From NCBI GenBank assembly GCA_043228905.1, contig JBHGNT010000001.1, positions 25,544,001-25,608,000 of the forward strand: a stretch of DNA of 64,000 nt, read 5' to 3'. The DNA is from Azolla caroliniana. Its lineage: Eukaryota > Plantae > Polypodiophyta. Under the pieces are notes generated by a model, which did no database searches, was not told where the DNA came from, and saw only the letters and a list, made by a program, of their open reading frames with translations. The position numbers and the translations under genes were made by a program. This document shows positions 9,176 through 64,000 of the stretch, piece by piece; the stretch's first letter is position 1, and the number at the start of each line of letters is the position of its first letter.

Positions 9176-10130
9176 CTCTTTGTGGATGATAAAAAAAAAT
9201 CTAAAAATCTAAAATCTCTCATTCTCTCCGTGTGTCTATCTTGTCATGGGCTCGCCCTCTAGAAGACTCTCATCTTGATGGTCAAAAGAAGCTCCAAAAT
9301 ACGTTTTCAATTTAGGCTTAGCAAAGATAACAAGGATTGTTCTTTTCTCTTACCTCGTGGGATGGCTTCTATCATGCTAGTGTTTTTACATAGACAAAAA
9401 GGTCTAAATATGGTGGATATAGTTACTGGTATAACATTGACATATTTAGGTGTTTTGAGCATAACAAAAGTATTTCTGGAATACGACAATGTTGCCTCCT
9501 ACATTAGACTTCCAAGCATGGATGTTTCGGTTGATTGATGAAACAAATCCACATGTAGCTTATTGTGAACTAAACCATTTTTCTTTCAAATCAATGGAAA
9601 TGTTGAGGACAACAAACGATGATGTAAATTGATATTTTTTTTCGTAATCTTAGTGGTAAACTATTTGGTATTCGTTTGGAGGCTTTAGACTCAAATTCTC
9701 ACTTTCATGAATATGTCTTGCTTACATCAAATTGTTATCATCTTAATAATACAGATCGAATATCCTATCATAGAATACCCTTCACCAAAGATCGTGGTTG
9801 GAGATATGCTAATAGATTACAAACAAAGTAATTAGCTGATGGTCGAATCGACTACAATTATGGTTGAATTGGGTATGGTTCAATCGATTACAACCAAATC
9901 AGTTATACACAATACTGATAAAATCATTCCGGGTCCGGGGACGGCGTAGTGTCCGTAGGCGCGTCGGTACGTGGTTCCACTACCTGCTCAGGAGGGCTGC
10001 TTATGGCGTTGTTGGTTTCTTGTGTGGGCGGTCCGGGCTCTGTGGGCTCATCGTGTGCTATGGTGGTCGGTTCCGTCGTTGACGGGCTTGCGGTAGGTCG
10101 GGGTTCTGTCTCGTCCGTAACCTCCTCCGT

Positions 10131-10870: not shown

Positions 10871-10892
10871 AGAGGCGGCAGAAGAGCAGGAA

Positions 10893-16564: not shown

Positions 16565-16579
16565 TTAGGTGGGGGCGGA
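16565..16579 (+). promoter_or_regulatory. Polypurine tract
   Basis: TTAGGTGGGGGCGGA directly before the 3' LTR. Confidence 0.8.
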
Positions 16580-17298: not shown

Positions 17299-17562
17299 CC
17301 GTGTTGTCGGTCGTAGTCATGTGCTCTGGTGAGTGAGGCTAGGGTTCCTCTTGATCGGTGGTTTCGCTTTCTGGTATTGCGAGGGACTTCGCTTGCCGTT
17401 TCGTGATGTGCACCGTAGTGGTTCTTTCCGGTGACATGGGTTGAGGTTCCTCTTGTTCGGCAGTATCCGGAATAGGTATCGCGATGGATTCCTCGTTGGT
17501 TCGCGTGCTATTGGCTTGCGTGATTTGGTGAAACAGGTCCTCCTGACTTTCACCAAAATCAT

Positions 17563-18570
17563 CTAGTAGTTGCGCGAGTTCCTCGGAGTGTTGGTCCGCA
17601 GCACGCGATAATCCTGCGCTAGGTCCTCGCGTACTGTCACAATGCTTTCCTCATTGAGCTTGTAGAACCCGTGACCGTCTTTCCTTCGGTTCTCCCCGTC
17701 CACCCGGTATGTATGCAACTCTGCCGCCTGTGCGGCCCATGCCATCCAGCCTTTATCGACCGCCGCTTTTAATTGCGCCATAAACCTCTCCCGATTTGTT
17801 TGAAGAAGTATGCGCACGTTGTTGGTTATTGCTTGGCAACGGTTGCGTGCTTCTTGTACGGTCTTCCTAAGGTTGTCAATTTCCTGTTTATCAACCGTCG
17901 CCGCTTCCTCATAAGTGCTCCTCATTCCTACCCATAGTTGAGATTCCTTCGCATGTAATTCCTCCAACCTGCCCATTTCATTGTTTAGACGGATTTCAAG
18001 CTGATACCTTCTCTCCTGTTCCCCTACCAACTGCTCGTCAAACCATGCTTTCTTCTTCTCCAATAAGGCCCGAAGTCTCGGGATTGCCGCTTCCAATTTT
18101 TTCGCTTCCTCCCATAATTGGGCATTTTCTTCTTTCGTCTGGGTGTGCTGTGTTGCCTCCGAAGCGAGTTCCTCTTCAAGGGTCTTCACTGCCTTTCGGC
18201 CGTTGGCCCGGATGTCCTTTTCTCTGTCTGAGGACTGGCGAAGTTCGACGCGAAGACGGTCAATCTCCGATTCCGCCAGTTGCACGGCCCGTTTCGCTTT
18301 CGAGGCAATGGCGGTCTGAGCTTCAATTTCTTCCCTCAGGGCTTCGATGGCGTTGGATGTTGGTGGAGCTGCCTGTTGCGCCGTAGTCGCGTTACTTTCC
18401 AACCCTGCGATGCGTTCATTGGCCTTTTGTAGCTCGACTTGGGTCAGTTTAACCTTTTTCCATACATTTTTATTTTTAATCACCATATCCTTGGCGCCCA
18501 TACTGACCTTTGCCAGTTCCCTATGAACTTCGACCAGGGCCGCGTTTAATGGGGGTAGTTCCATCCCCAT
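17563..18570 (-). pseudogene. Coiled-coil/C-terminal part of retroelement accessory ORF
   Basis: Heptad-rich; WAAQAAELHTYRVDGENRRKDG aligns with WATNAAELQLLRADVENRRKEG of ORF 57617-60286. Confidence 0.8.
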
Positions 18571-18640
18571 TCAGCGTATACCAGCGTTCCTCTGCCTGCC
18601 GACTCTGGCTAACTGATCCTCATCGTCGCTTTTCGTCGTT

Positions 18641-19553
18641 TGTATTAACGCATGCTCGATCATTTGGTGCTCCTCGGCCATTCGTTGTGAGACTTTTATC
18701 TATTGCGTTGCCAAGAATTCCATGAATTCAAAAGTGGTTCCGAACTATAATAGTGCGCCAAACTCATGGGCCGTGTCTGGAATGTCCTGATACGCCAAGA
18801 CCTCGCTTTCCGTTGTCGTAGTGTAATTCGCACACTACGTGAAAATTACATTTTTTGTCCCTCCGGATTGAATCGGTAAGGAGAACCGGTAAGAACCGGA
18901 TCAAGCAGAACCGGCAAGAGCCGGATATAGAAGGCCAGTGAGAATCTCTCACCGGATGAAGAGACAAATTTGTAAATCGAAGAAAAGATTGTTACATGCA
19001 TAGGGCAAGATTCAAACCCTGTACCTCCATGTAAACGATTTTTAAGCATTACCACTATACTAGCATATTATGAATTTTAATATTATACTAAACTTTATCC
19101 CATGTAAATATTCTAGATATGCATGGTACAAAAAGTCATTCATGCATACACACTCGAGTTAAAAGAAAAGATGGGATAGAAAGCTAATCATGCACATGCA
19201 CTGTGCATGAAAACTAAAGTTAGGAAAAGCATGATGCTTGCATGTGATAACCTTAGACTCTTCTAACACTATATAAGGAAGAGAGAAAGATGTATAATGG
19301 TTGTTGCTTATTTTACAAGGGTTGATTGATATAATATAATCGTGGGTTTCACGAATTTGCTAACTATTTTTCTCTCTTAATCTGATTACTCACTAATACA
19401 CTATACTCGTGGGATTCACGAGTTTTTCATATCTTTCTTTCTTACAACATATTTCATATTCTTCATTGCCTTAGAATTTTCTTTTCTCCTAGTCCAAAAC
19501 CTCAGTGGTTCCCGCCCGACTCACGCAATGATCTGGAGCCAAAAGGCACGACA
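18641..19553 (+). mobile_element. AT-rich insertion in the accessory ORF; its 3' part resembles an LTR end of the Trp-Gypsy group
   Basis: Interrupts the ORF; TATA CTATATAAGG at about 19270; ends GTGGTTCCC..CACGCA..CACGACA like the 10849 LTR end. Left boundary uncertain. Confidence 0.4.
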
Positions 19554-19559
19554 TCGTCG

Positions 19560-20444
19560 TTAATACGACTTTCCCTCGCTGGACTGGGCCGTAATGATCG
19601 GCCGTGGTTCCCGGTCGAAGGTGGTGTTGGGCTCCGTAGCTACGGAGTTGTCGCCCATGGTCGTCGTCTCCGTGGCTGCAAGTGTGTCTTTAACTAACCG
19701 ACGCTCATCCTTTCTATCCAGCCTCTGCCGTTTCAGCCTCAGGCTTCCTTGGCGTGTCTCGGCTTCCGGTTCCTGCGCAGGTTCCTCATTGTGCTCCGCC
19801 CGCTCTTCCTGTGTTGTTCGCATGTTGGGTTGGGGTTCATCCTCCCACTCTGTGGTGGCCAACTCCGCTAACCTTCGCTTCGAGGATCGTGGCAGAGGCG
19901 TGGGTTTGCTAGCCTGGGGTGCCGGCAGACCTCGGGGTGGGAACAATATTGTCAGATACTGTTGTATTATAGGCCTTAACTTTTTGCCTCCTCGATACGC
20001 ATGCAGGCCTTCTCGTAACGCCAATCCCATAATGACCCCCCGATCGACCGTACGCCCTTCAAAGGTATCAATGATGATACCTGCCTTCTGCTTGGGCATC
20101 CCATATGCGTTTACATGTACGCATCTGACCTCCAACAGGAATTTGGCGATTTCGCGGAAAAAGGGATATGGGATCTCCTTCGTTCTATATGCCTTGGCAG
20201 ATGACGAATATGGACCGAAATACCTTTGCAAAGATTCCGCAGGAGGGATTTCGAAATGCCTTTCACCTAGTGATGACAGGTCCAGCTTTTTCCGGATGGA
20301 TGAGTTGGTGACCGTGTTGATGTTGAGCTTCCTAGCGATCTCTAGTGCGTCAGGGTGTGGAGGTGCCTTAGCGACGCTGATGTACCCATTCAAGCGTTTC
20401 TCCATGAGCCATCGATGCAAGGCAGCAGAGATGGGTATTGGCAT
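19560..20444 (-). pseudogene. N-terminal part of retroelement accessory ORF
   Basis: From ATG 20444 (MPIPISAALHRWL...APPH...YFGPYS...YRT...FREIA...MPKQKAGII..TFEG..VD); aligns with the N-terminus of 57617-60286. Confidence 0.8.
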
Positions 20445-21305
20445 AGTCGAAATAGGCTCGTGGCAAATGGGTGAAGACTGTTGGTTGCGGCGAGTTTGAG
20501 CTCTATGATAGGATGGGGAAGAGGGTGAGGAAGGGGAGCAATGAGAGCGAAGAGAGTTAGAAGGTTGGTTTCTGTATTGTGCAGAAAACCTTCTATTTCC
20601 TTCTTTTTGTGGCCTAGGGTTAATTGGTCGGTGAGCCATTGTGGTGCCGCGTGTTCTTGGCCTAGAAGTCTATGCATGCCTTAAGTCCTTTTAATAGCAT
20701 CGCTATCTTCTCTTCTTCTTTTTCATTTTTTCTTCGTAACGGTTACTTACAATATTATGTTTACACTATAGTACAAGTGGGGCCTTATATTTACTCTGCA
20801 GATTCTTCGGCGTTGTCCTGTCCGGCGGGGAACGGGTTAGGTGGCGTAGGTCCCAGATAAGGTTTAAGGCGAAACCCATTCACTTTTTGTCGTAACACTT
20901 CCCCGACCAACGTGCCCTGTTCTGCTCCCACTATCTAGTATGGGCCTGTCCAGCGGAATCTTAATTTTCCTGGCATATGCCCCATCCATGTTTGGAAAAC
21001 TAATACCGGTTTTCCAATCGTAAATTTTTTTTCACACGCATGCCGGTGTCGGTCCACGAATGCTTTGTGCCGCTGTTGTTCCTACTCTTATATGGCCATA
21101 CTGTGTAACCTTGTTTCTCCTAGCTCTAACAATTGTTATAGCCGTACTGGTTCGGATTTGCCCTCTAGTAGCTGGGCTCATACTTGAATCCGCAGACTGG
21201 GTACCTGGAATTCGACTAGCATCACAGCCTCCAGACCAAATGCTAGCCTGAACGGCGTTGATTGTATGTTGGTCTTATAGCTAGTACAGTATGCCCATAA
21301 CGCGT

Positions 21306-21480
21306 TGTCGCGTTGTTACGCGCGTGCGTGGAGAACGAGGCGGGACCACCGGGGCCTCGAACCGAGAAATAACCGAATGAGGGGAGGGGAAGGAAACTAA
21401 CGATGTAATTCACACGCGCACGGACCCACAGAATCACAGGAATTGCAACCAGCTACAGAACGCGAGATGGAGACAGAACG
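21306..21480 (-). repeat. 3' part of a diverged LTR of the Trp-Gypsy family
   Basis: Reverse complement ends CGGTTCGAGGCCCCGGTGGTCCCGCCTCGTTCTCCACGCACGCGCGTAACAACGCGACA, alignable to 10789-10849. Confidence 0.7.
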
Positions 21481-29129: not shown

Positions 29130-29500
29130 ATACATACATAGGAAGAGCAAAGGGTATATGGAGCTATGTAAATACATACACACAAAAATAGAGCTATGTA
29201 CATACATACATACATACATACATTATACATACATACACACATACACACACACACATACATACATACATACCATAGGAAGAAGAAGGGGCCAAATATGTAA
29301 ATATAGTTGTGTTGTTTTGTGTTTATTCATTTACTCACACTCTTACTTACTGAGAGAAAGAGAAAGAGAAAGAGAAAGAGAAAGAGAAGGTTAGATAGAA
29401 AGAAGAAAGGAAGGGTTTTCGTTCTACGTCTTCTCTTCCTCTGCTCTGCTCTGCCTCCTCCTCCTCCTCTTCTTCTTCTTCTTCTTCTTCTGCTGCTGCT
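29130..29500. repeat. Compound microsatellites (TACA)n, (GAGAAA)n, (CCT/CTT/CTG)n in the EBP1 promoter/5' UTR
   Basis: Visible simple repeats upstream of ATG 29529. Confidence 0.85.
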
Positions 29501-29528
29501 CTTCCATCGATCGTTCTCTGCCCTCGCC

Positions 29529-33332: not shown

Positions 33333-34341
33333 TTCTATCAGTGTTGATTTCATGTCATGTGCAAGTCGGTTTCCTTGTCCCTTCCCCCACTATATCCACC
33401 TGAGTAGGCGAAAATGAGTAGAGTTTTATCTCTGCTCAAAAAGCGTGTCTGTATTGCGTCTGCACATTGTTTGCAATGCAATATGATGCCTTCTTTTTTC
33501 TTCTTTTTTTATGTTGGATTTGTGAACTTGTACCCTTGTACCCTATGGAAGGGTGCGTACATTTTTGATCGCATCTAAAGAAATGATTCTAGCTATACAC
33601 TTCGTCAGTCCTGGTTTTAAAATATCTAAATCAAAATATTTGCAGATAATGTCTGTTTGCATGTGTTTGTCCAGTGTGTGCTTCATTTGTTTCTAGGGAA
33701 TTTTTTGTTTCTAACAAAATGTCTTCATTTGTGAGACTAATTATGTGTATGGAATTTGTTCATTTATGTCAAAATGATATATATCTCATATGAGCTAATT
33801 GTTAAAATTCTAGTGTGCGCTTTAGATAACGGACATGTTATTCTTAAATTTTTTGAATTTATTTTTATGTGATGAGCTTAAAAATAGTTGGATGTTCTGA
33901 CATTACTTTTTGAATTGCTTTCATTTTTGGTAGTTGTTGCAAGAATCATGCTCCCTTTGCATACTATTGATTATGTGGAGCAAAAATATGCCATCAATAT
34001 ATCTACTAATTGTGACTGAGCAAGAAAAATAATTCATCATCCCTATTTTCATAAGCAACAAATTATGTAATAAATCACATATGAACCACATGAGAATTTT
34101 ACTTTTGAGCATTTGGAAGATTTAGGACGCATTTTACTAAGCTTCCTAGCCGGGTTGATACTCATCATTGGATGAGCTGTTAAGAAGCTTGCAAACATAA
34201 CGTAATGATGGCTATGTTGGTGTGTTGATGCGCTTTGCTATTAGGTTTTATAGCTATATAACTGAGCTAATAGGACCTCTCATTTTGCTCTTTGACAAGG
34301 TGGATCTTATTTCTGATCAAGCATAATTTGTGTTGTGCCTG

Positions 34342-34745: not shown

Positions 34746-35190
34746 ATTGTGAGCTAGGCCTTGGGGTCAAGGGACATTTGCAATATGACATCAATGGATA
34801 AGATGTCAATGATCATAGAAAGAGGCCCATTTGGGAGATATAATAGACGTAGACAGGAAAGACATCTATAGCAGCTTCATGCACAAAGCAGATACTTCAA
34901 CATTGGGATCCTTTGCATGTCAGGGTGCATGTCAAACCCTGAGCACGACGTAAACATGATGAATAAAGCAAGCCGGCATTGAAAAGAGATATGCCCGCGT
35001 GTTTGGGTGCCCAATGTGTAATGATATAAGTACATACATAGATATATATGCTTGGTCAGGGGTTCAATACTCACCCAGACTCACTAGAGGGTTCAATACT
35101 CTCCCACACTCTTCCATATGGGTGACACTCACACACAGAGCCAGAGAGAAAACACTCAGAATCCACACTCTTCATGACTTAGCCCTAATC

Positions 35191-37542
35191 ATGGCTTCTC
35201 TGCGAAAATTCTCAATGTGGGCGATGATCTTAAGGAACCCATCACCGTCTTCGTCGATATCTTCATCGTTGTCAGTATCTCAGGTACTCTCTTCCTTCTT
35301 CCTTCACCCTTTCTTCTTTGTAAGAACCTACGGTTTAGCAACAGAGAGGGACCTCTGTGGTGGAGCTACTGAAGAACAGAAGCTTCTTGCAGAAGCTTTT
35401 GTTGAGCTCAAACAAGAAGGAAATGGGAGGCCTAAGAGAAGACAGCAAGGGAACCCCCGGTGGAGACCTGTAAGCTTACCTTTAGTGGGTCGATCCATGG
35501 AAGTGGAACAAATTTTGAATGTTTTAAGGCAGGGAAAGAAGAAGAAAAGATCGTCTTTTTCTTCTTCGCCTTCTTCTCTTTTAGAGGAAGGAGAAGAAGA
35601 ATTTGATGTAGACAAGGGTCTCGATGAGTTGGCATTCAGCATTACTCCTTACCATATTAGCGAATCCCTAAAATCAGTTGAAGATGTTGAGAGTGCTATT
35701 CACCTCTTTCATTGGGCAGAGCTGAAAGAGGATTATACACACAATATAGTCACTTATACATGCCTTATTAAGGTTCTTGCACAAGCAAAAGAGTTTGGAA
35801 AGATATGGAACCTTTTGCTTGAAATGAAAGATGCCAACATTGAGCTTGAAGATGGCCCCTTTAATCTTCTAATTAAAAGCTATGGAGAAGTTGGAAAGAT
35901 AGAAGAATCCATCCGAACACTCCGTGAGATGTCGGGATTCGGAGTTAAACCCACTTTATACTCTTATAACACACTTCTTAGCCTTCTTTTGAAAGCTCAG
36001 AAACTCAACTTGGCTATGGAAATTTATCAAGAACTCATTTCAAAGCCTGCCTTGATCAATGAATTCGCATTCAACATGATGATTGATGGGTTTTGCGAGG
36101 CCGGGAGAATGCAAGATGCATTGAAGGTCGCTGATGATATGAAAGTTGCCAACCTAAGCATGGGTCTAATTACTTGGACTACTTTAATCAATGGTTTTTG
36201 CAAAGCGGGGAATATTGAAAAGGCCCAAGAACTTTTCTCAGAGATGAAAGAGATGGGGGTAGAGCCAAATGTGGTTACACATAGCTCTCTCATAAGAGGT
36301 CTTTGTAGGGTAGGGAAAGTGGATGATGCCATAGCTCATTTAGAATGCATGAAATCTGATGGATGCCCACCTAATGCAATAACATATACAGTGTTAATGG
36401 ATGGGTTTTGCAAATCTGGACGAATTGATGAAGGCTATAAGTTTTTGAAAGGGGTTCTTTCTGAAGGTGGGAAGGTGAATCAAGTAGTGTATTGCATCTT
36501 GGCTGATGGCTATAGCAAGCTAGAGAGAATGGATGAAGCTTGTATGATGTGTGATAAGATGATAAATAGTGGGTATTGGCCGAATGCGGGGACATATAGC
36601 TTGCTCATACAAGGGCTTTGCAAGGCTGGAAGAGTCAATGACGCGTACCGGTACTTCAATGACATGAAAGATAAGAAATGTGGCCCTAATGCTGCCGTAT
36701 ACAATGCAATGATTGATGGCCTTGCAAGGGCGGGTATGAAAGATGAGGCACAAACTCTATTCTCAACGATGCTCTCAGAAGGTTATGTTGTGTCTTCGTC
36801 AAGTTGTTCTTCACTTTTGAATTGCCTATGCAAGAAAGGCTCAGCTGATGATGCTCGGAAAACCCTAAGTGTGATGATAGAGAAGAAATGCCAAGTCACT
36901 GGAACTGCCTACAAGTCTCTTCTAAAGGGACTCTGTGATGCAAGTCAAATGGACTCAGCCTATGCTTTGTTTGACGAAATGTTGGAGCAAGGCTTCCCAC
37001 CTGATTCTTTTGCTTATGGTCTTTTAATATATGGAGCGAGCAAAGTGGGGGATGTAGAGAAGGCCATGGAGCTGTTTTCTGAGATGAAAGAAAAGGGCTG
37101 TGAGCCTGATTCATACAGTTACCGACCATTATTCCATGTTTTATGTAAAGCAAAGAGAGCTGAGATGGTTCTAGAGGTCTTTAACGATATGAAAGGACGG
37201 GGGATTGAGCCTGATCCTGTCATTTTTACTATTATTGTAGCTGGCTTATGTAAGCTCAATAAGGTGGCTGAGGCTGGTGACCTTTTCTTTAGCATGGTCA
37301 AGGATGGGTTTGAACCGAATGACATCAACATCAAAGCCCTTTTTTCTCGAATTGATGAGCAAGGAGAAGGGGATGTTCAAAGTGGTGGTGTGAAAGCATA
37401 TATGCCATTATTGAACAATTTACAAGAATGTGGTAAAATCTCATTGTTGATGATCTTGTGGGATACAATATTAGAAAAGGGTTTGTTTCGATGGATTGAA
37501 TACTCAGGTCGAGAGATTACCCAATGTGCTCAGGCATCATAA
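35191..37542 (+). CDS. P-class pentatricopeptide repeat protein, probably organelle (mitochondrion) targeted, intronless
   Basis: Tandem 35-aa motifs (TWTTLINGFCKAGNIEKAQELFSEMKEMGVEPNVV etc.); Ser/Arg-rich N-terminal presequence from ATG 35191; no E/DYW domain. Confidence 0.93.
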   Translation: MASLRKFSMWAMILRNPSPSSSISSSLSVSQVLSSFFLHPFFFVRTYGLATERDLCGGATEEQKLLAEAFVELKQEGNGRPKRRQQGNPRWRPVSLPLVGRSMEVEQILNVLRQGKKKKRSSFSSSPSSLLEEGEEEFDVDKGLDELAFSITPYHISESLKSVEDVESAIHLFHWAELKEDYTHNIVTYTCLIKVLAQAKEFGKIWNLLLEMKDANIELEDGPFNLLIKSYGEVGKIEESIRTLREMSGFGVKPTLYSYNTLLSLLLKAQKLNLAMEIYQELISKPALINEFAFNMMIDGFCEAGRMQDALKVADDMKVANLSMGLITWTTLINGFCKAGNIEKAQELFSEMKEMGVEPNVVTHSSLIRGLCRVGKVDDAIAHLECMKSDGCPPNAITYTVLMDGFCKSGRIDEGYKFLKGVLSEGGKVNQVVYCILADGYSKLERMDEACMMCDKMINSGYWPNAGTYSLLIQGLCKAGRVNDAYRYFNDMKDKKCGPNAAVYNAMIDGLARAGMKDEAQTLFSTMLSEGYVVSSSSCSSLLNCLCKKGSADDARKTLSVMIEKKCQVTGTAYKSLLKGLCDASQMDSAYALFDEMLEQGFPPDSFAYGLLIYGASKVGDVEKAMELFSEMKEKGCEPDSYSYRPLFHVLCKAKRAEMVLEVFNDMKGRGIEPDPVIFTIIVAGLCKLNKVAEAGDLFFSMVKDGFEPNDINIKALFSRIDEQGEGDVQSGGVKAYMPLLNNLQECGKISLLMILWDTILEKGLFRWIEYSGREITQCAQAS

Positions 37543-49451: not shown

Positions 49452-49949
49452 TGTCGTAAACCAAACATCCAGGACATTTTGGAGGAAGATTAAAGGGGTG
49501 AGTCCGACATGCCATGGCACTGTCCCACAGGCGTGCCAGGTGTTGTCCGCTGGAATAGTAACCGATGGACAGGAGCGTAGGAATATAATATAGTAAAATT
49601 GTAACGCATGTTAACGGTTCACGCGGGAAGCGTGAACAGCTAAAAAGACCATGTGTATATAAAGGGCAAAAATCCTCTGATAGAGGTAGCATGTAATTTT
49701 GGAATGTAAGAAGCGTATCTTAATAGAGTTCTATCTTCTCTGATATCTATGTGTATCTGTGGTTAATCTACTGTGTGTCTTTAATCCTTGGTGGTGTAGT
49801 GTAGTCGTAAGAGCATAGGCGTGAGTAATAGTGTGGTTGCTAGTCCACTGTCTAAGGAGTTCGGTTGTAGTCGTCTCCCTTATATGCTACTAGGTTACGG
49901 GAGGTATCCCACTAAGTATTACGCTACAACCATACCATTCGTTACAACA
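49452..49949 (+). repeat. LTR-like/3' terminal fragment related to 60260-60722
   Basis: Shares ATTTTGGA..stop..AGGGG..CGAC..GGYACTGTCCCACRGGCGTGCCA.GTGTT and a later TATA box with the region after ORF 57617-60286. Confidence 0.55.
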
Positions 49950-50009
49950 CAGTCACTTTGAGGTCTACGTCGAAGGATTGACCGTAGACCGTGTTCCTAA
50001 TCGGTAACA

Positions 50010-50860
50010 GACTCGTCATATGATTTGACGCTTCGGAATCAACATACCACACCTCGCTTGATTTCGAGGTGTTCACGACCATAAAATTGGCCTTATGCTT
50101 CATTACGAAGGCTGGGCCTGATTTGTTTCTGCCTCGTTCAGAGCCTTTTGCATAGTGCGATCTCTGACGCCTCTCTGCATCTCTTCGGCTCGATCTGGCT
50201 TTGTCCGAATCGGCCCACTTTTCCCAGCACTCGCTCTCCTTGTGGCCTTTCTTGCCATAGTACCAACAATCCGGTGCGGTCTTCTCTTGCCGTCTTCCAG
50301 CGCTGCCATGACTCCCCCTGCTTGCGGAGGGTTCAGAATTGCTTCCGGCATCTCGATTATGTCGTACATTCTCCGTTGCGCACCAATCCACCTCGTCCAC
50401 CACGACCACGGGGCCTATCATCCTCCATGTAAAGCATCTTGCCATCGGCGTGCGCACTCGTCGACGCACCCGCATGGTTTTCTTCTACGAGCAACATTGA
50501 CTGAAGCTCAAAAAATGAAGGCATAATCTCCCTCATGCAGACTGCCGTTCGGAAGGTCTGAACTTTAACTCCAAGCCACCAAGACAAACCTGCACCATTT
50601 CATCTTCCTCGATGCTCACGTTAATGGAGGCGAGAGAGTCGCAGATTTCTTTGATCTTGGTGGTGTAATCAGCCATTGACATATCTCTTTGTCGTACATT
50701 GCTCAGCTCCTGTATGAGTTGCAGCTTTCTGGCCGTTGTGCTGGCGGCGAAAATCCTTTTGAGATTCGCCCACATGTCCTTCGGCGTCTTGGCATCCCGA
50801 ATATAGCTCAAAAGCTGATCACTCACACAGGACGCGAAGTAGTACAACACTCTACTTGCC
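50010..50860 (-). pseudogene. Degenerate Copia gag-protease
   Basis: UBN2-like DAKTPKDMWANLKRIF...RKLQL, decayed knuckle CWYYGKKGHKESEC, WYVDSEASNHM. Confidence 0.85.
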
Positions 50861-51699: not shown

Positions 51700-54600
51700 C
51701 CACCTCCACTCTTAGTTCAAGTTACCTTGAACTCTCTATGCTCCACATATAGACACAAAGATAATATCTTTTGCTCTACCTTATATATGATGAGAGCCGT
51801 ATTTGTCGTGCCTATGTGGGATATCTCACAATTTTCTCTTTTCCTTTCACAAACTTTATACCCTTATATCTTGACATATAGTTGTCCGTTTCTCGTGTAA
51901 TAAAGTGCATTCGAAACCTCCATCATTTTGTACTTAGATATTAAATTTATTTAAAATGTTATCTTCACAATTATTGTATTATGTGATTTATACTCGATTT
52001 CGTACGTTTTATGGGATTTTCACACTATTGCCAAAAATCTTCACGACATCCACCCCCACCAAACCGCACGTCCTCCGGTACGTGCCAAGAAGAGAGAAAG
52101 TGAGATTTCGGCTACGGTGATCAATTAGATTCCTCCATGTCTTCATTTACATCCGCCCTATTATGTTCATCGTCGAGGTGATTGAGGTCAGGATCCTTGT
52201 CTTGTCTTTTCTTGAAAATCTTTACTCTTTTTCCCGCAATGGGTACGTCCAACCTTCATCCGTCTAGTTCCGCAAGGTGGTATGTGGCATTATCGTTGGC
52301 ACTTGTCACCACATACGGCCCGAACCATCTTCTTGCGAACTTCCTTGTTGTACTGTGTTGATTGTCAAGGGTGCTGTCGTAAACCAAAACCCAATCCCCT
52401 TCTTCAATCTTCTTGGGACGAAGTCGATGCGTGTTGTCGAACCGAACTTTGTTCTTTACTCGGGCTGCCTCCATCATCTTTCGCGCTTTTTCTAAATCTT
52501 CAGGTCTTCCTTCAAGTTGCCTTATCCGCGCCACTAATAACTCTTCTCGACTCATCTCGTTCTCCCACGGTATTGCTACCCATGAGGCGATCGTCCTTTC
52601 GATGGGCATAATCGGCTTTTGTCCATACATAAGATCCGTCGGCATATACCCTGTCACCGAGCTATGTGTCGTTCTATCGGCCCACAAGGCATAGGGTAAT
52701 AGTCGTGGCCAATTCCTGACTCGACCTTTGCATGCCCGTACGATGGCTTTAACGATAGGTCCATGCCCTCACTCGATCTTCCCATTCGCTTCCGGATTGT
52801 AGGCAGTCGTGAGGGAGAGCTTCACTCCTAGTCTTTCGAAGAGCTCCATCACTTCGTGCTCGTCCAACTCCCCTCGGTCGGCCACTATCTTCCCTACACA
52901 TCCATATCGGCAAACAACCTCTTCAAGCAGAAATTTGCAAACGGATGAAGTCGTCTTATTTGTCAAGGCTCGTCCTTCCACTTGATTTGTCAAGTCTTCC
53001 CTTGCCAACACTAAGTACTTCATTTGTCTCACTCCCATTCGCATCGAGACCAGATCCACCATCCATTTGAAGTGTATGGTGAGTGGGTATGTCGGTTGTA
53101 ACTCATCACGATGACGTATATTTGAATATATTTGGCAAGTTTCGCATGTGGACACGAAATGGAGTACATCTTTGTACATGCTTGGCCACCAATACTTCTC
53201 CTTCAACTTTTCGAACGTCGCCCATGTTCCTCTATGACCTGCCCAAGCACTCCCGTGGAATTCGGTCATCAGCGTCTCTTGCTCTTCTTTCTTTACCACC
53301 ACTCGACGTGGTATTCCTGTCCTTCTTTTTGGATGTCGCCAAAGGAATCCTCCCTTCAAGAAGTATCGGTAAGCTTTCTTTTGGATCCGTAGGGCCTCCT
53401 CCTTTGTCAACGAAGCATCTGTCGTCAATGTTCTTAGGAATCTACCGATGAGTAACCACTCTCCTTCGTACTCGTTCTCGTTGAAGGCGTGGAGGGTTTG
53501 CGTGTCCTGGTCTTCCGCCGACAATCGAGCCATCTTGAAGAAGTCGAGGGCGACATCTTCATCTTCCGAAACCATGTTACTTCCATTTGAAAATCTTGCC
53601 CTCGACAGCATGTCAGCCATGGCGTTCTTCTTCCCTGCAATGTGACGGATCTCTGGGTTTAAAGACTTGATGTAGGCGATCCACCTTAGCATAGCAAGAT
53701 CTGGGGTTGCACATCCCGAGACCATTCCGAGAATTGGGAGACAATCTGTCTCTATTATCACTTCTGACCCGATTAGGTAATCTTTGTCCGTCTTCACTGC
53801 CGACACAATACCCCAAAGTTCCCGCTTGACTTGGGCATATCTTTGTTGCCGTTCACTGAGAACCTTTGCTCCGAACCGAACGGCATATCGCGCATTATCT
53901 TCACCTTCTTGATTGATGACCCACCCGATTCCGGTTGGGCTCGTATCTACGGTCACGTAAATTGGTTTTCCTTTGGCATAGTCGGCCTTCCTTAGTGCCG
54001 GAGCTTCAAGAAGTAGTTTCTTTAATCTTTGCATCGCAAAGTTCCCGCTTGACTTGGGCATATCTTTGTTGCCGTTCGCTGAGAACCTTTGCTCCGAACC
54101 GGACGGCATATCGCGCATTATCTTCACCTTCTTGATTGATGACCCACCCGATTCCGGTTGGGCTCGTATCTACGGTCACGTAAATTGGTTTTCCTTCGGC
54201 ATAGTCGGCCTTCCTTAGTGCCGGAGCTTCAAGAAGTAGTTTCTTTAATCTTTGCATCGCATTTGTGTGCTCATCTCGCCATTCGAACTTCATTCTTTTC
54301 TTTAGTAGTCCATATAACGGTTCGGCGACATGAGCGTAGTGAGGAATCCATATATGATAAAACGCGCACGCTCCAAGGAACCTTCGAACCTCCGTTTGGT
54401 TTTCGCATTCTTCTTTCATGTCTTGGATTGCGTTCACTTTGGATGGCGAGGGCTTCCGGCTGTATGCTCCACACAAGTGACCTACCACCAAGATCTCCGG
54501 TTGCCCAAATGCGGATTTTTCTCCCGAAAATGTCAAATTCGCATCTTCGAGCCTTTGAAGCACCTTCTCGCAATTTTTCATATGATCCTCAACGAACTTT

Positions 54601-57345
54601 CTACAACCTTCCTTATCTTTCGATTCATCTTTCTCCTCATCCGAACATCCTTTTATCGGAATATCATCCAAGAATGGCATCGTGATGTCCGGAATGCAAT
54701 CCTTCAAGACTTTATTCATGGCATTCACCATATGAGCCACCGAGTTCGTTGCGCCTTGGGGTAAGGTACACATCCGCACAAGCCCGATCGGAGTCCTCAT
54801 GGTTGTAATGTCCCGACTGTCGATCGCCAATTGGAATTGGTCATATCCAGAGTAGAGATCGCCAATGGAGTAGATGGACCGGCCTGCAAATGCTTCGGCA
54901 AATTCGTCCACGCTCGGACCGATTCCGGCATTTCGAATTGTCACCTTGTTGACGGGTTGAAGATCTTGGATGAATTGCAATGATCCATTCTTCTTCGGCA
55001 CCGTGAACCACCTATTGGAATAAGGAGCATTCGATGGTTCTAGAATTCCCATACTCACCTTCTCCTTTAAGAGCTCAATCAGCTTCGGAAGGTGTGCTCT
55101 CGGAACCGGTATCGGTTTCAAATTCCAAGGCACATGAGGCACCGTGAAGATCACCATCGGCTCTATAACCTTTGGGTCGGCGCATCCGATTTCTCGTGGG
55201 AAGAATGCGAAAGCCTTCCCATGTCTCTCAAGCATATCGCGAAACATTCGCTCCTCTTCAGGGAGAAGGAAATCCTCCTTTCCAACTCGTAGCTTCCCCT
55301 TCGTCTCTTTGGTGAAGACATGACCTATCTTCTTCGGATCTCTTAAGTTTGGATCGTTAGCGACTTCCTTCATCTTTTGCCAGCTATCTTCCGGTAGCGG
55401 AGCCGCAACTGGCTTGATCTTCTTATCCACCGTTTTATATTTCGTGTTGATGTCAGCTTCCTTCATCGAGACGCCACCATGGTATTCATCGATGATAGCG
55501 TACATGTTGACGGAGTTAACCGGAATCACGCGTTGGTTGTGAAGATAGCTCAAGTCCACGACGTCCTCGATTTCGCCGATGGTGTCGTTAAATGAGGCTT
55601 CTTCCATAATATGAGTCACGAACTCTCCTTCTTCTATTATGTTTTCTTCTTTCAGCATCTTCTCGAATTCTAGTATCCGGTGCTTGTGCTGCTTGTCGGG
55701 TAGTACTAGTTTACATGCGCCACTAGGTGTGACACATGTTGCTTCTCCTTGCAATCCACACACTCTTCTTTCTTGTGGGGTCTTGTGATTGCTCGGACTA
55801 TTTGTGCCCCATGCTTCAATAGTCCGCTCTAAAAATCCGAGGATTCGCCTCCGAGACTATCTCGATTCCGTTCATGATTGGCTCGCACCGTTAGGAATTG
55901 GACCGATCTTTGGTTGTCAAGACTCTTTATTCGTGCGAAGGCTGCTCCATTATCGAACACTTTGGTCTCCATCCGAGATGATGTGATATAAGGTTGCCCT
56001 AGGATGACAGGATGCGACGCCGATTCTTGTACGAATAAGTGTTGATCCATCTCCACATCCCCGATCGTGACTTTGATATTGGGACAAGCTCCGTACAAGT
56101 CCTCCGTAGACTTTGTTGCCACGCGAATCTTCCATCCGTGGTTTGTATTGATTGGCCACCTTCTTTTTTTGTAGAAGTTGGTTGACATGAGGTTAATCTC
56201 CGAGCCGTGGTCGATCAAGGCTACTACGGTCTCTTTCTTCTCCCCGATCTTCACCGGCATCTCCGTTGTCGCTCGTGCCCAATGAGGTCGAGTGTAGTGG
56301 CTGTCCACTATATCTTCATCGATTTCATCTCTTGCCATCGTTATGGCATTCATTTTTGCTTTTTGCGGCTTCTCTTCTTCCTCGTCCGATTGTTGTCTCT
56401 TTCTCTTTACAAGGTCCACGATTGTGTCATGGAACTCCTTCGTAATGCCAAGCAATTCCCTCAAGGACAAAGTTACGTGGCTATCAAGAACTCGTTCTTC
56501 AAGAATCTTCTTTAGGTCCGTCGTCTGCTCTATGTCCGACCTTAGCTTATAGGTAGGTATAGTCCTTGTCCTCCGAGCAGGGTCTTCGACACCAACCTTC
56601 ACGGGCCGAACCGTTTCTTCAACTCGTATGCTCGGCTCCCCTTTTCGGCTTGTAAAGGTCGACTCGTCTCCGCATCGTCCTTCTTTTTCGCGTTCCTTGT
56701 TTCATGTCTTTTTGATGGGCCTTGCTCTTCTATTCTCTTTCTCTTTTCTTCGACGAACACCTCGTGGTTGTCGCACATCACCTCTGCGAGTATGGTGTTG
56801 TCGTCCACCGGATCCGACCACCCGGTTATGCTTTGCACGCTTCGGTCCACAAGCTCTACCTCGTTCGATGTGACTTTTCCCTTCTTCTCATATTCGAGAA
56901 CGGAAGTCCAAAACTTTGCTCCCACTCTAGCAGCTTCAGTCTTGTCTTTTCCGACTCTTATTCCGGCCGACGCAACATAGTGCATCGCATCCACATGAGT
57001 CGCATCGGCATCCTCCATAGATTTCTTCATTCCTCCTCTTCCGAAATTCACCCGTAGGGGTCTTCTAGTCTCGCTTGAGCAGATCATGTTGTCCTCTATG
57101 TATACGATATTTTGTCGAATTGCCTCTCGAAGGCTCGCACAATCCCTTCTCATGTGGTCCATGCTATCGCACCACACGCATCTAAAGGGTTCTTTTCCTT
57201 TAGGGCCCCGACGATTCATGTTGGCTAGCATGACCTTCTCGAACTTCTTCGCTAGCTCTTCAATGATGTCGTCATCAATCTTCTTTTCTTCCACGTTACT
57301 TTGTCTTGGCGGCTCAGCTACTTTCGAAGGAGCGAAAAGGTACGT
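51700..57345 (-). mobile_element. Decayed Ty3/Gypsy of the same Trp-primed family (partial gag, PR, pol, PPT, 3' LTR from 52048)
   Basis: CVWCDSMDHMRRDC, ALIDHGSEINLM, GGATTTTTAG junction, FLDD, RNase H, integrase; GGTGGGGGTGGA-TGTCGTGAAG; a frameshift and stops; 5' end missing; LTR end approximate. Confidence 0.9.
53814..54260. repeat. 223-bp tandem duplication within pol
   Basis: CAAAGTTCCCGCTTGAC...TTTGCATCGCA starts at 53814 and again at 54037; it shifts the frame. Confidence 0.9.
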
Positions 57346-57616
57346 AGTGGGCATTTAAGAGCCGCCACGTTACTTAATACTAAATCGGTACACGACGTGC
57401 GCATGCTCGAAAAAGGCGCCAAGACGCACAAAGAAAAAGCAGCACGCATGGAGACCTTTTCATTTCGCGAGCCAAGAAGCACAGAAGCACCAAGGCAGTG
57501 GAAGCTTAGCAAACGCGAACCTGCACTCAGAGAACCCCCACGTTCGGAACTCTCTCTCTCGCTCTCACTCTCATCACCACTCTACCTCGCCATCTTTCCT
57601 CGACCTCGAAGCAGAC

Positions 57617-60286
57617 ATGGAACCACAAACGCTGTCGGAAGCGGCCAGGAAATGGCTCAGGCAACACGGACTGGATGGGTTCTTGACCATCATGGAGGCA
57701 CCACCGCACAAAGAAGCCGACCAGGTCATCAAGGAGCTCGACAAAGAAGTCATCACCGAGGAAGCGATCCGTGCGCTAACAGGCCTTCCGGAGGGAGGTA
57801 TTTTTCAGATCGATAACCCAACCTCGGAACAACTCATCCGATATTTCGGTGAGTACTCTGTAGCCGGCAAAGGCTATCGAACGCAGGGCGGGGAAGATCT
57901 GCTATTCAGGGAGATAGCTCGAGTGCTCCATGAGTACGGCCACGTGTACCCCCGACCCCCTGTCATGCCAAAAAATCGGGTAGGGATGATCATAGCCACC
58001 TATGAAGGGATCAAGGTGGATTGGCTGGTGTTGATTGCAGACGGTTTGTGCGCGGCATTCGACACGGTACGAGGAAAGGATGGCAAGGAGGGCCGGAAGC
58101 TGTGGCATGCCGTAGCTCAGTGGATAACATTGCTCGTGCCGCCGGTCGAGACCGTCCAGCCAAAGAAGCGGCCAAGATTATCGGAAGGAAGCACCTCGAA
58201 ACCCGCGTCCAAACGACAGCAGCTGCTGGCGTCGAAGGTGACGAAAGGGAAGAAACGGCTCCCAGAACCGGAGGAGGTGTCACCGGTCCGACCCGTTAAG
58301 ATAACCATACGGCGACCGGGACAGAAGGAACCTGAACCCGTGACGGCACAGAGACATGCCGTTACCCAGGAAGAGGAAACGGAGGAGCCAGAAGAGCACC
58401 TCCAACGACGGTCAAGAAGTAGGACCGCCGGGACAGCGGGGGAGCGTTCGGACCCGCAAAAGGAAGAAACGCCCCCAACTCAACCTGAGCAAACCACAAG
58501 GGAGGAACCGGAACCGGTGCGTATAGAACCGGCCTTGTCGACTTCTATACAAGAAGTCATTCCAACGGCTCCGGAGACGGCGAGAACCGGAACTCAACAG
58601 CCGGTGAGCCCAGCCAGCACACACAGCGGCCAAGGAGTAGAACCAGAACGGCAGATACAGGCACTCAGGCCAGACAATTCCACAGTGAACGAGCCGACCC
58701 GACCAGTACAGCAGCAAGGCACTAGTAGCATGTGGCTACGGTGGGTAGGCGAGCAGATCGCCGGAGCGGTCGAGTACATAGAGGCGGAGGAGAGAGCGCA
58801 CCACGAACGGTTGCTCGTCACAACCGTAGATCTAGAGACGGCCCGGTCCAGAATCCGGAGCCTTGAACAAGACTTGGACAGGGTCACAAGGGAAATGGCT
58901 CAATTGGCTTTGACAACACAAGTCCAAGCACCGGTGACTCCGGGCAATGTACAGAATAAAGAGTCAGATCAACCTGTACATAGCAATCAGACCCCGGCAA
59001 CGGAAACCGTTCTGGAGAGAAATGCGGCACAAGCCCAAGAGCTTGCGGACTTAAAGGATGAGCTAGCTGCCCAAGAAGCGCTGAGGAGCCGCGAAAGAGA
59101 GTTGAAGACGGCAGCGGAGGCAGAACTCAAAAAGACTACTGAGAATCTACGCCGGGCCGAGGAGAGCTTACGAAAAGGCCACCAAGCGTACGACCGGCTC
59201 AAGGAGGAAAGGGAGAAAATGCTGCAAGAGAAGGACAGGCTCCGGAGAAACGCCGAAACAGAAGTAGAGTGCCTGGAAGAGGAACTCCGGCAGCTAAAGG
59301 ACCGGGAGGACCGGAACCATCGCCAGATCAACGGCAAGCTCAAACAAAAAACGGAGGAATTTGAGCACTTGCACCGGGAGTATAAACGGTTGCAAACGGA
59401 GCACAAGGAACGGACGGATGAGCTCCGGCAAGCAGTTGATCGGACCGCAACGGCATACGCTAATGAACAAGCGGAAACCAGAAGACGGTTGGAAGAGGCG
59501 GAGAAGGTTCGGACAGAGCTCCTCAGGCAACAGCAGGCGGAAAGAGAAAGAGCGGCGGAGGTACTGCAGAGGCTGCAGACAACATATCAAGGGCAGCTGA
59601 CGCGCTACAGAGAGCAGGCGGAGGATACGGCTAATCTCATCAAGCAGTTGAAGGAGGAACGACAAGTTGTGGAAAGTAGAGCACAAATGGGAGCAAGTCG
59701 CATCCAGGATATCATGCGGGCCTGGTTGAACCAGACCAAGATCTTGATTGACAACGGTTCCGTCAAATGGTGGACCAAGTGGGCCACGAACGCGGCGGAA
59801 CTCCAATTGCTCCGGGCCGACGTAGAGAACCGGCGGAAGGAGGGAGATGATTGCTATATGCTGACTTCCGAAGACTTCACCGGCATAAGAGATGAGCTGG
59901 CCGAAGACTTTCAAGCCTTGGCAGAGGACCAACTAGGGCAAATCCGGCAACTTGTAGCTCAGCTGGACGACGACAGGCTGGAGGCGCAGATCCAGTTTGA
60001 AAGCTACGAGAGGTCCCGGATCCGGGAAGAGAAAGCACGAGAACCGGTTACGGTCAACCTCAGTGATGAGGAACCGTTACTGGAAGGAGACCGGACCGGA
60101 AGCAGTCAAACGGGGATGCCGGAGTCAGAGAAACAAACGGAGCAGCCGCCTATAGAGCAGCCGGAGCAGTCTCAGTCCCAACCGCAACCACAGCAGCAGC
60201 AGCAAGAACAACCGCAACAACCACAACCGGAAGAACAATTGGAAACTCTGGAACAAAGTATTTTGGACAATTTGGGTGAACAATGA
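57617..60286 (+). CDS. 889-aa retroelement accessory protein: conserved N-terminal domain, disordered linker, long coiled coil, conserved C-terminal motif, Q/E/P tail
   Basis: Uninterrupted ATG-initiated ORF, homologous in two separate regions to the broken ORF 20444-9925 that follows an OTA integrase. Confidence 0.85.
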   Translation: MEPQTLSEAARKWLRQHGLDGFLTIMEAPPHKEADQVIKELDKEVITEEAIRALTGLPEGGIFQIDNPTSEQLIRYFGEYSVAGKGYRTQGGEDLLFREIARVLHEYGHVYPRPPVMPKNRVGMIIATYEGIKVDWLVLIADGLCAAFDTVRGKDGKEGRKLWHAVAQWITLLVPPVETVQPKKRPRLSEGSTSKPASKRQQLLASKVTKGKKRLPEPEEVSPVRPVKITIRRPGQKEPEPVTAQRHAVTQEEETEEPEEHLQRRSRSRTAGTAGERSDPQKEETPPTQPEQTTREEPEPVRIEPALSTSIQEVIPTAPETARTGTQQPVSPASTHSGQGVEPERQIQALRPDNSTVNEPTRPVQQQGTSSMWLRWVGEQIAGAVEYIEAEERAHHERLLVTTVDLETARSRIRSLEQDLDRVTREMAQLALTTQVQAPVTPGNVQNKESDQPVHSNQTPATETVLERNAAQAQELADLKDELAAQEALRSRERELKTAAEAELKKTTENLRRAEESLRKGHQAYDRLKEEREKMLQEKDRLRRNAETEVECLEEELRQLKDREDRNHRQINGKLKQKTEEFEHLHREYKRLQTEHKERTDELRQAVDRTATAYANEQAETRRRLEEAEKVRTELLRQQQAERERAAEVLQRLQTTYQGQLTRYREQAEDTANLIKQLKEERQVVESRAQMGASRIQDIMRAWLNQTKILIDNGSVKWWTKWATNAAELQLLRADVENRRKEGDDCYMLTSEDFTGIRDELAEDFQALAEDQLGQIRQLVAQLDDDRLEAQIQFESYERSRIREEKAREPVTVNLSDEEPLLEGDRTGSSQTGMPESEKQTEQPPIEQPEQSQSQPQPQQQQQEQPQQPQPEEQLETLEQSILDNLGEQ

Positions 60287-60722
60287 AGGGGCCGAGAAGG
60301 GTTCGACGTACAAGGTACTGTCCCACGGGCGTGCCATGTGTTACCGGCCGGCAAGGAGTCCAAAATACGGAGTGAAGGAATTAATTAAGTATGGTTGTAA
60401 ATAAGCATAGTATGGACGGACGGACTGGAAACGGTATGCCGTTCCAGATCCGGACGGATCCCGAATAGGTGCGATAGGCACCGTTTTGTACTACGGGCCG
60501 GAAACCTATTTAAAGGCCCGGACCCCATTGTAATCGCAGCGGATAATTAATAGAGCGTATGATGTTTATACTTCTGTGTTGATTTCCGTTCTGTACTTAC
60601 TGTTATATCTTACGCGTGTAATTAACAAAAGCGCTCTAATCGTGTAACCTACTTAAGTCGGTGTAATCGTTGAGTCATAATCCTATGCCGTAATCACCCT
60701 TTGGTGAAGTGTCTCCGTGACA
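60287..60722 (+). repeat. 3' UTR/LTR-like region of the accessory-ORF element
   Basis: Purine-rich tract after the stop, TATA-like CCTATTTAAAGG at about 60505, AATTAATA, ends CCGTGACA. LTR start not resolved. Confidence 0.5.
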
Positions 60723-60744
60723 CCTTGTGTTAGGCCTTGTCCGG

Positions 60745-63700
60745 TCAGAGAACAACATGTGCTACTGAGTTGGTCCCTCGCGGTAGGGTACACATCCGCA
60801 CTAGGCCGAGAGGAGTCCGCATCGTCGTGATATCCCTGCTTTCTACGGCTAGTTGGAACTGATCATACCCCAAGTACAGATCACCGACCGAATAGATCGA
60901 CCTTCCAGCGAAGGCCTCCGCGAACTTGTCAATGGTCGGTCCGACACCTGCGTTCCGAATGATCACCTTGTTGACCGGCTGGAGGTCCTGAATAAAGCGC
61001 AATGTGTCATTATTCTTCGGCACAGTAAACCACCGATTCGAATATGGGGCACTCGACGGCTTGAGGATGCCCATCTCCACCTTCAGCTTCAGCAGCACCA
61101 TGAACTTCGGGATGTGAGCTCTGGGTACCGGAATCGGCTTGAGATTCCACAACACATGTGGTACTATGAAGATCACCATTGGTTCCACGATCGTCAGGTC
61201 TACGCACCCGATCTTCCCCAACGCGAATGCGAAGGCCTTCCCGTGCCTTCCGAACATTCTCCAAAACCGGTCCTCCTCCGTCGGCAGTAGGAAGCCACCC
61301 CCACCGATCTTAAGCTCCCGTAGCGTCTTTTCGGTGAACTGGTGTCCTATACCGGCCGGATTCCGCAAACTGGGGTCCGTTGCGACCCCCTTTATCCGCT
61401 CCTCACTGCCCTCCGGCAAGGGAGCTGCGACTGGCCTCACCTTCCGGTCCACAGTCTTGTACCTCATATTTACGCGGGCCGTCCGATCTGACCCGATCCT
61501 TTCCCCAAAGTCGGCAATGACTTCATACATTCCCACAAGTTAACCGGAATCACCCGGTCTTCATTGAGGCCTTCTTCGATCACCTTTCCCATTTCCTCGA
61601 GGGTGTCGTCGAAAGAGACCGCCTCCACGGCGCTACTAATTTCTTTGTCGGGGCGTAGGACTCCGCAGTCTCTGAAACGTTCCTCAACCCTCTTCTTCTC
61701 CCAGCCACCGACGCCAGCTATTGTATAACCTCTGTTGTCGGAGACCCAAAACTTCCTACCTATAGTACAAAACTTCCTTCCTACAGCACACATATGGGGT
61801 TCTTCCGGAGTGTCTGGACTACTGCAGCTCCACGCCTTCATAGCCCTCCCTAAAAATCCCCTCAGCCATCGCTGCCGATAGTTTCGCGGTTACGCTCGTG
61901 ATTCGGTCTCACGGTCAGGAATTGGACGGAGTGTCGTCCATCTTGGCTCTTCACGTGCGCGTATGCCAAACCGTTGTCCAGCACCTTGGTCTCCATACGT
62001 ACCGCCGTACTGTATGGTTCGCCGAGTATCACCGGGTGCGAGGACGTCTCCTACACGAAGAAGTGTTGGTCGATCTTGACATCTCCAATCTTGACGTGTA
62101 CGTTTGGGCATGCCCCATGCCGCTCTTCCGTAGCACGAATCTTCCACACGTGCTTGGTGTTGATTGGCCACTTCCCTTTCTAATAGAAGTCCATGGACAT
62201 CAGGTTAATCTCGGAACCGTGGTCTATCAACACCACTACCAGCTCGTGGACGTCTCCGACCCGAACGGGGGTCTCCATAGTGGCTCTCGCTTAGTGTAAC
62301 CTTGAGTAGTGGCTCTCTGCCAACTCGTCTTCTATGGCCACATCCTCCAGGTGCGTCATTCGCACCTCTACTGTCTTCTCTGGCTCCGGCTCCATCGAGA
62401 GACGTTTACGCTTCACCAAGTCCACGATGGAATCGTGGAACTCCTTCTTGGCGATCCCGAGCACCTCCCTCAATGACAACTCCACCTTGCTGTCGAGAAT
62501 CCGCTCCTCGAGGACCTTCCGTAGGTCCGTCGTCCTTTTTATTTCGGTGCTCAGCCGGTAACCGGTTGGCTTTGCTTTGTCCGCCATGCCGGGATTGCTG
62601 GCATCCTTCTTCTTCGGCCCGAACCGGGTCTCATACCGATTCGGGGGTGCGGTTCCACCGGCCTTCCCTGCCTTCTTGTCATCCACCAGAACCTCGTAGT
62701 TCTGGCACGTGGCCTCCACGAAGCCGATCTTCTCCTCTATCGGGTCGTCCCACCCGGTAACCTCTCGGATTTGCTTCTCCGCACGGTCCGCTTCTTCCTT
62801 CCTCAGTTGTACGTCGGCGAGGCCTTCTATCACCAATGGCCAGAATCTGGAGTCTTCTGTCTTTCGGCCCTCGTCGCTTCCGACCCAAATTTCGGACGAT
62901 GCCAAATAGTGGGCGACCTTTGCATGGCGCGCCACTGCTTCTTCCATCAACCTCTTCATTCCACCGTGCCTGAAGTTCATCTCTAGGGGTCTCCGGGTAT
63001 CACCGGTGTGCACCTGCTCGTTCCATAGGTACACCATATCGCTTCTAAGTGCGTCTACAAAATCCGCGCACTCTTTCCGGGCGTGGCTGACCGCATCGTA
63101 CCACATGCACCGCTGCCCAGCCGGAAACCTCCGATCGCGGGACTGTTCGCCGCTATCTATTCGGGCCTGCGTGATCTGGAGATCGCACACCATCTACATC
63201 AACTCTTCTAGAGCTGCTCCTCTGGATGGGCCCTTTGACCATGCCGGTTGAGGTCGAGCCCGTCTCGAGCCAATCCCGGGTTTCCTCCTTTCGTGTCTTC
63301 GAAGGCTCATTGAAATTCCTTGCCGGGACAGGTCTTACCGCCGCTGATCCCTCGTCGCCCCACTCATGCCGTTTTTCAAAACGACCGCAGACTCTCTTCA
63401 CCATGGCCCAGTCGGCGTCAGCCTGTCATCTATCTCTAGCAGGACACCCACCTGATCTCGATCCCGCAAGTCCACCACTTTGACAAACAACAAGACACGA
63501 CTCGTGTCCACCACGACTCTGTCCACTGCCGAGAGCTGCGCGAAGCGTTCCTCAAACTCCCGGAGAAGCGCCGACGCATTCCTCCCCTTTCTGGGGGTCT
63601 CCACCCAATCCATCAAATCTCACTTCAATAGCCGAAGCACATCATCGAGGCCGTCCCTTCGAGGAGCCGCCCCTCAAACTCTTCCCAGGTCCTGCATCTG

Positions 63701-64000
63701 GCCTGCACCTCGAGCATCTCTGTGTGAATGCCCGGTGTTGCCACCCGAGGGAATCCGGCCAACCACCTATCTTCCGGAATGTCCCTCATCACCATCTCGG
63801 CTCGGTAGGACTCCAAATAGCTCGTGGCGTTCTTCCCACCGAACTGGCTTATTGTGCCGACAATTGCTTCAATGGCCCTGTCGAGGGCGCTCATGCCCTC
63901 GTGAGCACTTACTATCCGATCGACTACTGCCGCCATGGCTTCAGCAAGCAGTGATCCCCTCATCTTTGACTCCTCTACCGCCTTGCTTCACATCGGGTTC
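60745..64000 (-). mobile_element. Third, degenerate copy of the Trp-primed Gypsy (PBS, gag-PR, start of pol; truncated in RT)
   Basis: Window end reads GAACCCGATGTGAA (PBS), then MRGSLLAEAMAAVVDRIV...; strong similarity to 10857-14120 with many stops and frameshifts. Confidence 0.92.

Follow-up and report, generated by a model that had tools for sequence, protein, structure and literature searches.

An env-position accessory gene family with a predicted VANC21-like N-terminal domain in LTR retrotransposons of Azolla caroliniana

The 889-codon open frame near the end of the window analyzed here (64,000 nucleotides of the Azolla caroliniana contig JBHGNT010000001.1, positions 25,544,001 to 25,608,000) is a member of a genuine accessory gene family of Ty3/gypsy LTR retrotransposons, one that is under selection and does not encode an envelope. 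The family extends the known range of extra ORFs in Athila/Tat-type elements by a new type and lies outside every Pfam family. For its N-terminal domain, modeling predicts the fold of VANC21, a DNA-binding anti-silencing protein. We favor, at a probability of about 0.5, the reading that the protein acts in the nucleus on the DNA of its own element, relieving silencing or activating transcription.

Table 1. Accessory ORF, its relatives and associated element features in the window (position 1 is the first letter of the window)
Feature	Position	Strand	Basis
Accessory ORF	57617..60286	+	889 aa open in window copy
N-domain (aa 1-176), its fold predicted to be VANC21-like	57617..58144	+	model pLDDT 91, pTM 0.86
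Basic NLS-like patches, aa 182-215, opening variable Pro/Glu/Thr-rich linker	58160..58261	+	sequence
Heptad-rich stretch, charged and free of proline, ~aa 470-700; coiled coil predicted	59024..59716	+	heptad score
Conserved C-terminal domain, W..QAAEL..LRAD.ENR.K.G..FY pattern	59714..59986	+	sequence conservation
Terminal acidic amphipathic motif, (I/L)LD(I/N)L plus acidic residues	60248..60283	+	sequence conservation
Remnant of family-1 pol-to-ORF region	57327..57616	+	sibling alignment; includes upstream ATG 57448
tRNA-Arg(UCU)-like site replacing polypurine tract	60299..60336	+	T-arm part, 13-nt hairpin insert, tRNA 3' end with CCA
Family-1 3' LTR, ~420 bp, TG...CA	60339..60757	+	LTR comparison
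Family-2 integrase C-terminal remnant	20842..21306	-	67.5% to family-1 integrase
Broken family-2 ORF, segment 1: upstream ATG 20639, N-domain 20444-19935	19555..20639	-	
Broken family-2 ORF, segment 2: coiled coil and C-domain, containing a stop and a frame break	17299..18812	-	
Broken family-2 ORF tail past nested element; no family-2 LTR after	9923..10130	-	
Third remnant: family-2 3' end with tRNA-like site and LTR	49461..50012	+	

The first-pass annotation, made from the sequence alone, called the ORF intact. The frame is indeed open over all 889 codons, but the copy is truncated upstream and the conserved ATG at 57448 is out of frame. Sibling copies align to the window copy only from 57327 onward, the 5' LTR and gag-pol having been lost at that junction. 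The window copy is one of 2 among 47 family-1 copies with this ATG out of frame, the break falling in a CT-rich run before the ORF. Because the ATG is in frame with the ORF in the other 45, where length variants are 12-nt steps, the full gene is probably about 57 codons longer, the 889-aa frame being its downstream part. In subfamily 1c, 11 of 19 copies have the corresponding upstream ATG in frame and open, as do 3 of 10 scored copies of family 2; most of the others carry stops. A native head-to-head pairing of the ORF with the neighboring minus-strand gag-pol (52200-57354) was rejected, since 57327 is a deletion junction; the adjoining gag-pol belongs to an unrelated gypsy lineage.

Proteins of the family measure 820-1190 aa and contain few cysteines. 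The linker with basic NLS-like patches and the long heptad-rich coil described in the first pass are borne out, the coiled coil being predicted by a simple heptad score. In 13/13 full-length members the basic patches are present and the acidic motif forms the extreme C-terminus. By Kyte-Doolittle 19-mer hydropathy, on which the assessment of Env features is based, none of these 13 has a hydrophobic 19-mer above 1.44 (maxima 0.96-1.44), in line with the reported lack of a transmembrane segment.

A broken minus-strand homologue had also been described, and tblastn recovered its N-domain (aa 3-176 against 20441-19935, 35.6% identity, E 1.5e-28) and its C-terminal region (aa 546-768 against 18276-17599, 28.4% identity, E 5.7e-12). 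It does lie in sense behind an integrase C-terminus (Table 1). Two insertions interrupt this copy: one of roughly 740 bp (18813-19554), the other a nested 7.2-kb gypsy element (10131-17298) with a 4-bp target duplication. A single copy with a decayed twin was rejected as a description, the two window copies being members of two separate high-copy families. The nested element (plus strand) is complete, with near-identical LTRs and at least 116 close copies. It belongs to a second gypsy lineage, also seen at 52200-57354 (-) and 60758-64000 (-), that carries DUF4100, a domain known from fungal elements. A complete Ty1/copia element (21691-27000, +), with a 1375-aa open frame and a 300-nt stretch identical between its LTRs, sits inside the family-2 integrase. 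The window also contains a 410-codon open frame for a microbial-type terpene synthase (PF19086; 45487-46719, -), a gene type of non-seed plants. Two transcribed genes also lie there: a spliced host gene (29500-33600, +) with eight GT-AG joints in RNA run X1, and a PPR gene (34963-37542, -) transcribed in the same run.

Both families are numerous in the 523-Mb genome; from about 4,600 candidates in either case, 150 of 150 scored copies reached at least 92% for family 1 and at least 80% for family 2. A whole family-1 element spans about 9.9 kb: between its two LTRs lie first a single gag-pol frame, about 1,950 codons long, and then the accessory ORF. Seven of the 10 family-1 copies fetched have both 420-bp LTRs (99.3-99.8% alike) and 5-bp target duplications, and both LTRs are present in 3 of 5 family-2 copies. 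The family was amplified recently to high copy number, and most family-2 and subfamily-1c copies are broken. Directly after the pol stop, family-1 copies carry an A-run of variable length (for example at 6352-6376 of locus L121, between pol stop and ORF). The LTRs, the target duplication and the order of gag followed by RT-RH-IN (Pfam) are those of Ty3/gypsy elements, and the extra ORF between pol and 3' LTR together with the absence of a chromodomain is as in Athila/OTA; we also take the RT and integrase motifs to be OTA-like. Because Pfam finds one RNase H in pol, with neither a chromodomain nor an additional archaeal-type RNase H, Tat in the REXdb sense, as outlined in the cited part of PMC6317226, was rejected; Athila or the aRH-less Tat Z (PMC10508981) remain. 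Homologue searches matched metagenome proteins only, the metagenome loci coming from one assembly series (L248, a chance match without an LTR start, is excluded).

Position and sequence evolution both tie the ORF to its carrier. The proposed env position in Athila/Tat-type elements was borne out, with an integrase upstream in sense at 18/19 other family-1 loci and 27/30 family-2 loci and the ORF sitting after pol and ahead of the 3' LTR. In the reverse test, 28 of 30 loci chosen on the integrase carried the N-domain, one the C-part only and one neither, confirming the association of homologues with LTR elements. In integrase-chosen copies, dN/dS pooled over pairs was 0.19 (0.10-0.32) across aa 1-176, compared with 0.52 across aa 177-320; aa 451-670 of ORF-chosen copies gave 0.28. 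The pairs are non-independent and dS is saturated in several between-subfamily comparisons. The low values of 0.09 for family 2 and 0.26 for subfamily 1c are biased, these sets having been picked on the N-domain, as is the integrase value of 0.02. The accessory gene is under purifying selection: dN/dS lies well below 1, as the suggestion of past selection in the first pass had implied, and not near it. Between the families, integrases are 60-71% identical and N-domains 36-48%.

The predicted fold of the N-domain matches the VANC21 structure (PDB 9LNK) over the whole domain, at 6% identity. The accessory protein is probably a remote structural relative of VANC/PMD. The match goes past the earlier guess of a remote Transposase_32/Athila-like N-terminus and points toward the anti-silencing option. 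That guess held in part: Atlas leads of 0.81-0.87 run to Transposase_32, ATHILA, PMD and DUF1985, but none of these Pfam families matched at its cut-off in the query, in 22 aligned domains or in 72 homologues. Pfam as a whole gave nothing meaningful for the ORF, its domains and the 72 homologues, nor did a PDB sequence search with the protein or Foldseek against the PDB and viral protein models return a match, and so no full-length match to a characterized host or transposon protein emerged. Searches of the genome with the profiles PF20167, PF10536 and PF09331 found no match and are uninformative, since the control matches were likewise absent.

The end of the element is unusual in its own right. 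The tRNA-Arg(UCU)-like site before the 3' LTR holds 17 of the last 18 nt of the tRNA including CCA; these 17 nt repeat the 3' terminus of a tRNA-Arg(UCU) that ARAGORN finds in this genome, with CCA added, and end 2 nt before the LTR. Its core motif has 2955 exact matches in the genome, compared with 0 for the reversed control. Where base 58 of the tRNA would fall, a hairpin of 3-4 bp interrupts the site; it shows compensatory changes and comes as 46 distinct inserts. In 30/30 internal loci the site is also one base short of the tRNA. Nine matches have the true tRNA spacing; one is a PBS-side copy and eight, representing five events, lie at LTR starts, to which L147 adds a sixth event. At the six junctions (L153-L155, one event in a tandem repeat; L156; L147; L157; L158/L159; L160) host tRNA-Arg(UCU) with CCA is fused 2 nt before the LTR start, over 18-19 nt in three and over 43-57 nt, to the anticodon arm or further, in the other three. 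Copying on a tRNA is expected to stop at methylated base 58, after about 18-19 nt. A PBS follows the LTR in L154, L156, L159 and L160, and L158/159 is a junction of LTR end to LTR start. Because all six contain the base missing from the internal sites and lack the hairpin insert, the junction sequence is, as its letters indicate, derived from real tRNA and not from element RNA. With fairly high probability, the junctions are best explained by a plus-strand tRNA primer that was kept; the competing account is a switch of template onto tRNA. They would then be direct traces of a tRNA-started plus strand, a departure from the polypurine-tract rule; we found no description of it in the literature searched, and the cited part of the one candidate, 10.1101/2022.12.06.519325, concerns ordinary polypurine tracts.

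PBS-side copies of the minus-strand primer (L161, L151, L152) were left out of the junction count; L151 and L152, which hold a long or whole copy of tRNA-Arg(UCU), CCA included, on the PBS side of family-2 LTRs, represent minus-strand primer read-through. With one search pattern, no tRNA was found for the family-1 5' PBS. Five further loci (L229, with two sites 2.5 kb apart, L209, L239, L175 and L176) carry the tRNA-like site with no accessory ORF or cognate pol detected nearby, and are possibly non-autonomous derivatives.

Run X1, recognized as RNA by its spliced host contigs and lack of intergenic cover, contains low-depth contigs covering pol and the accessory ORF, which is weak evidence that the carrier family is transcribed; no splice joint into the ORF was seen in this run, and its uncovered gag region carries no weight. 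In family-1 pol, private C>T/G>A changes were elevated relative to A/T transitions (38), 2.9-fold at CG (32) and 3.3-fold at CHG (30); the corresponding values for an ORF-less control gypsy family were 1.0 and 1.2. This footprint does not favor constant anti-silencing. It fits life in methylated chromatin, and is compatible with a transient anti-silencing burst and equally with heterochromatin targeting. On a 0-1 scale of chromosomal centrality, young family-1 copies have a median of 0.58 (99 copies) and young control-family copies one of 0.40 (104 copies; p 4e-4), leaving out C15, C21 and the small contigs. No clear tandem target array appeared by k-mer counts in the LTR or leader of six family samples.

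According to the anti-silencing or activating reading, a subgenomic RNA would express the protein and the basic patches would carry it into the nucleus. There the N-domain may bind DNA with a family-specific preference, as its faster divergence relative to the integrase suggests. The coiled coil would form oligomers and the acidic C-terminal motif could recruit a host chromatin or transcription factor, by which the element DNA would be freed from silencing or its transcription switched on.

The same fold could serve a different job, docking the integration complex onto heterochromatin or onto pericentromeric DNA in place of the absent chromodomain. We consider this unlikely: young copies are more central and methylation decay is stronger than in the control, but the bias is mild against a uniform expectation of 0.5 with centromere positions unmapped, and post-insertion selection yields the same pattern. 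A particle nucleic-acid chaperone that anneals or protects the second tRNA in the unusual plus-strand priming, or a factor for RNA export, is quite improbable. The gene adjoins the tRNA-like site and the C-domain lies upstream in 24/30 position-ordered motif loci, yet the other 6 and L229 are motif-bearing units without the ORF, related folds occur in normally primed elements and DNA transposons, and the best structural match is DNA-bound.

A repressor role, in which the protein would hold its own element in check for the good of the host, is very improbable. The PMD proteins MAIN and MAIL1 do act in transposon silencing (in the part cited of PMC5418596), and the methylation footprint is strong; against this stand the recent amplification and the acidic C-terminal motif, which presumably resembles an activation helix. 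An envelope-like protein, or a movement protein that lets the element pass between cells, to which the env position, sense orientation and long coiled coil would be suited, has very little probability given the hydropathy maxima, few cysteines, NLS-like patches and silence of the viral protein models. A neutral passenger or captured host gene with no function for the element is barely credible and already largely refuted by dN/dS and frame data; the many broken copies of family 2 and subfamily 1c would fit it, but indels preserve the frame and the ORF co-diverges with the integrase across families 60-70% identical.

In the cited parts of PMC7264820 and PMC11963269, the role of the extra ORFs in plant Athila/Tat elements is an open question. 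Sequence-specific anti-silencing is known for VANDAL DNA transposons (PMC5735166; PMC13547354, in the parts cited), and among the titles and abstract openings that our searches listed, none showed it for an LTR retrotransposon. The VANC21 fold link makes function testable through DNA binding and cognate LTR methylation, and it would bear on where the fold arose: PMC13547354 traces VANC back to a MAIN gene captured from the host, and PMC5418596 leaves room for an origin of host PMD genes in Gypsy elements, each in the part cited. A Gypsy-borne version in a non-seed plant would favor the latter. Tentatively, and at less than even odds, LTR retrotransposons of non-seed plants may already have, in the env position, a gene for a sequence-specific anti-silencing factor of the VANC type, in which case the fold would have begun as a retrotransposon weapon, plant "env-like" ORFs would be chromatin factors, and the clade would prime both strands with host tRNA, leaving fossil tRNA-LTR junctions.

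Comparisons with known systems refer to the cited parts of the sources. A tRNA-type PBS after the 5' LTR, TG...CA LTRs and a 5-bp target duplication are shared with canonical LTR priming (PMC7264820), in which a polypurine tract precedes the 3' LTR, whereas here a split tRNA-Arg(UCU) 3' half does. The 3' sense extra ORF of Athila (ATHILA PF03078/Transposase_32 PF20167; PMC11728184, PMC7197481, PMC6317226) has no Pfam counterpart here; the present proteins differ in their length, own C-domain and terminal motif and lack of a transmembrane segment, and their elements in tRNA-Arg-type primer sites, an absent polypurine tract and no spliced RNA seen. Retand/Tat antisense ORFs and maize Grande GENE23 (PMC7264820; PMC11963269), with Transposase_28 and SMC-like coils, likewise combine a globular domain, coiled coil and nuclear signal at a site following pol and preceding the 3' LTR, and share a proposed regulatory role; they are antisense, from flowering plants and in elements with an additional RNase H, whereas the ORF here is in sense. 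PMD proteins (Gypsy-encoded PMD-A, host MAIN/MAIL1; PMC5418596) are described from angiosperms and have a PMD about twice as long as the present domain, and PF10536 is without a match in the genome, its positive control being likewise silent; a common structural superfamily is likely and the Ty3/gypsy association is shared. VANC proteins such as VANC21, described as dicot-specific, are the anti-silencing proteins of VANDAL (Mutator-like) DNA transposons (PMC5735166; PMC13547354). The present carrier is instead an LTR retrotransposon of a non-seed plant, with low identity, no Pfam DUF1985 match, no tandem target arrays seen and a predicted anti-silencing role, but it shares with VANC the predicted fold over the N-domain, a transposon-encoded accessory gene, a conserved domain joined to variable low-complexity regions, and a coiled coil.
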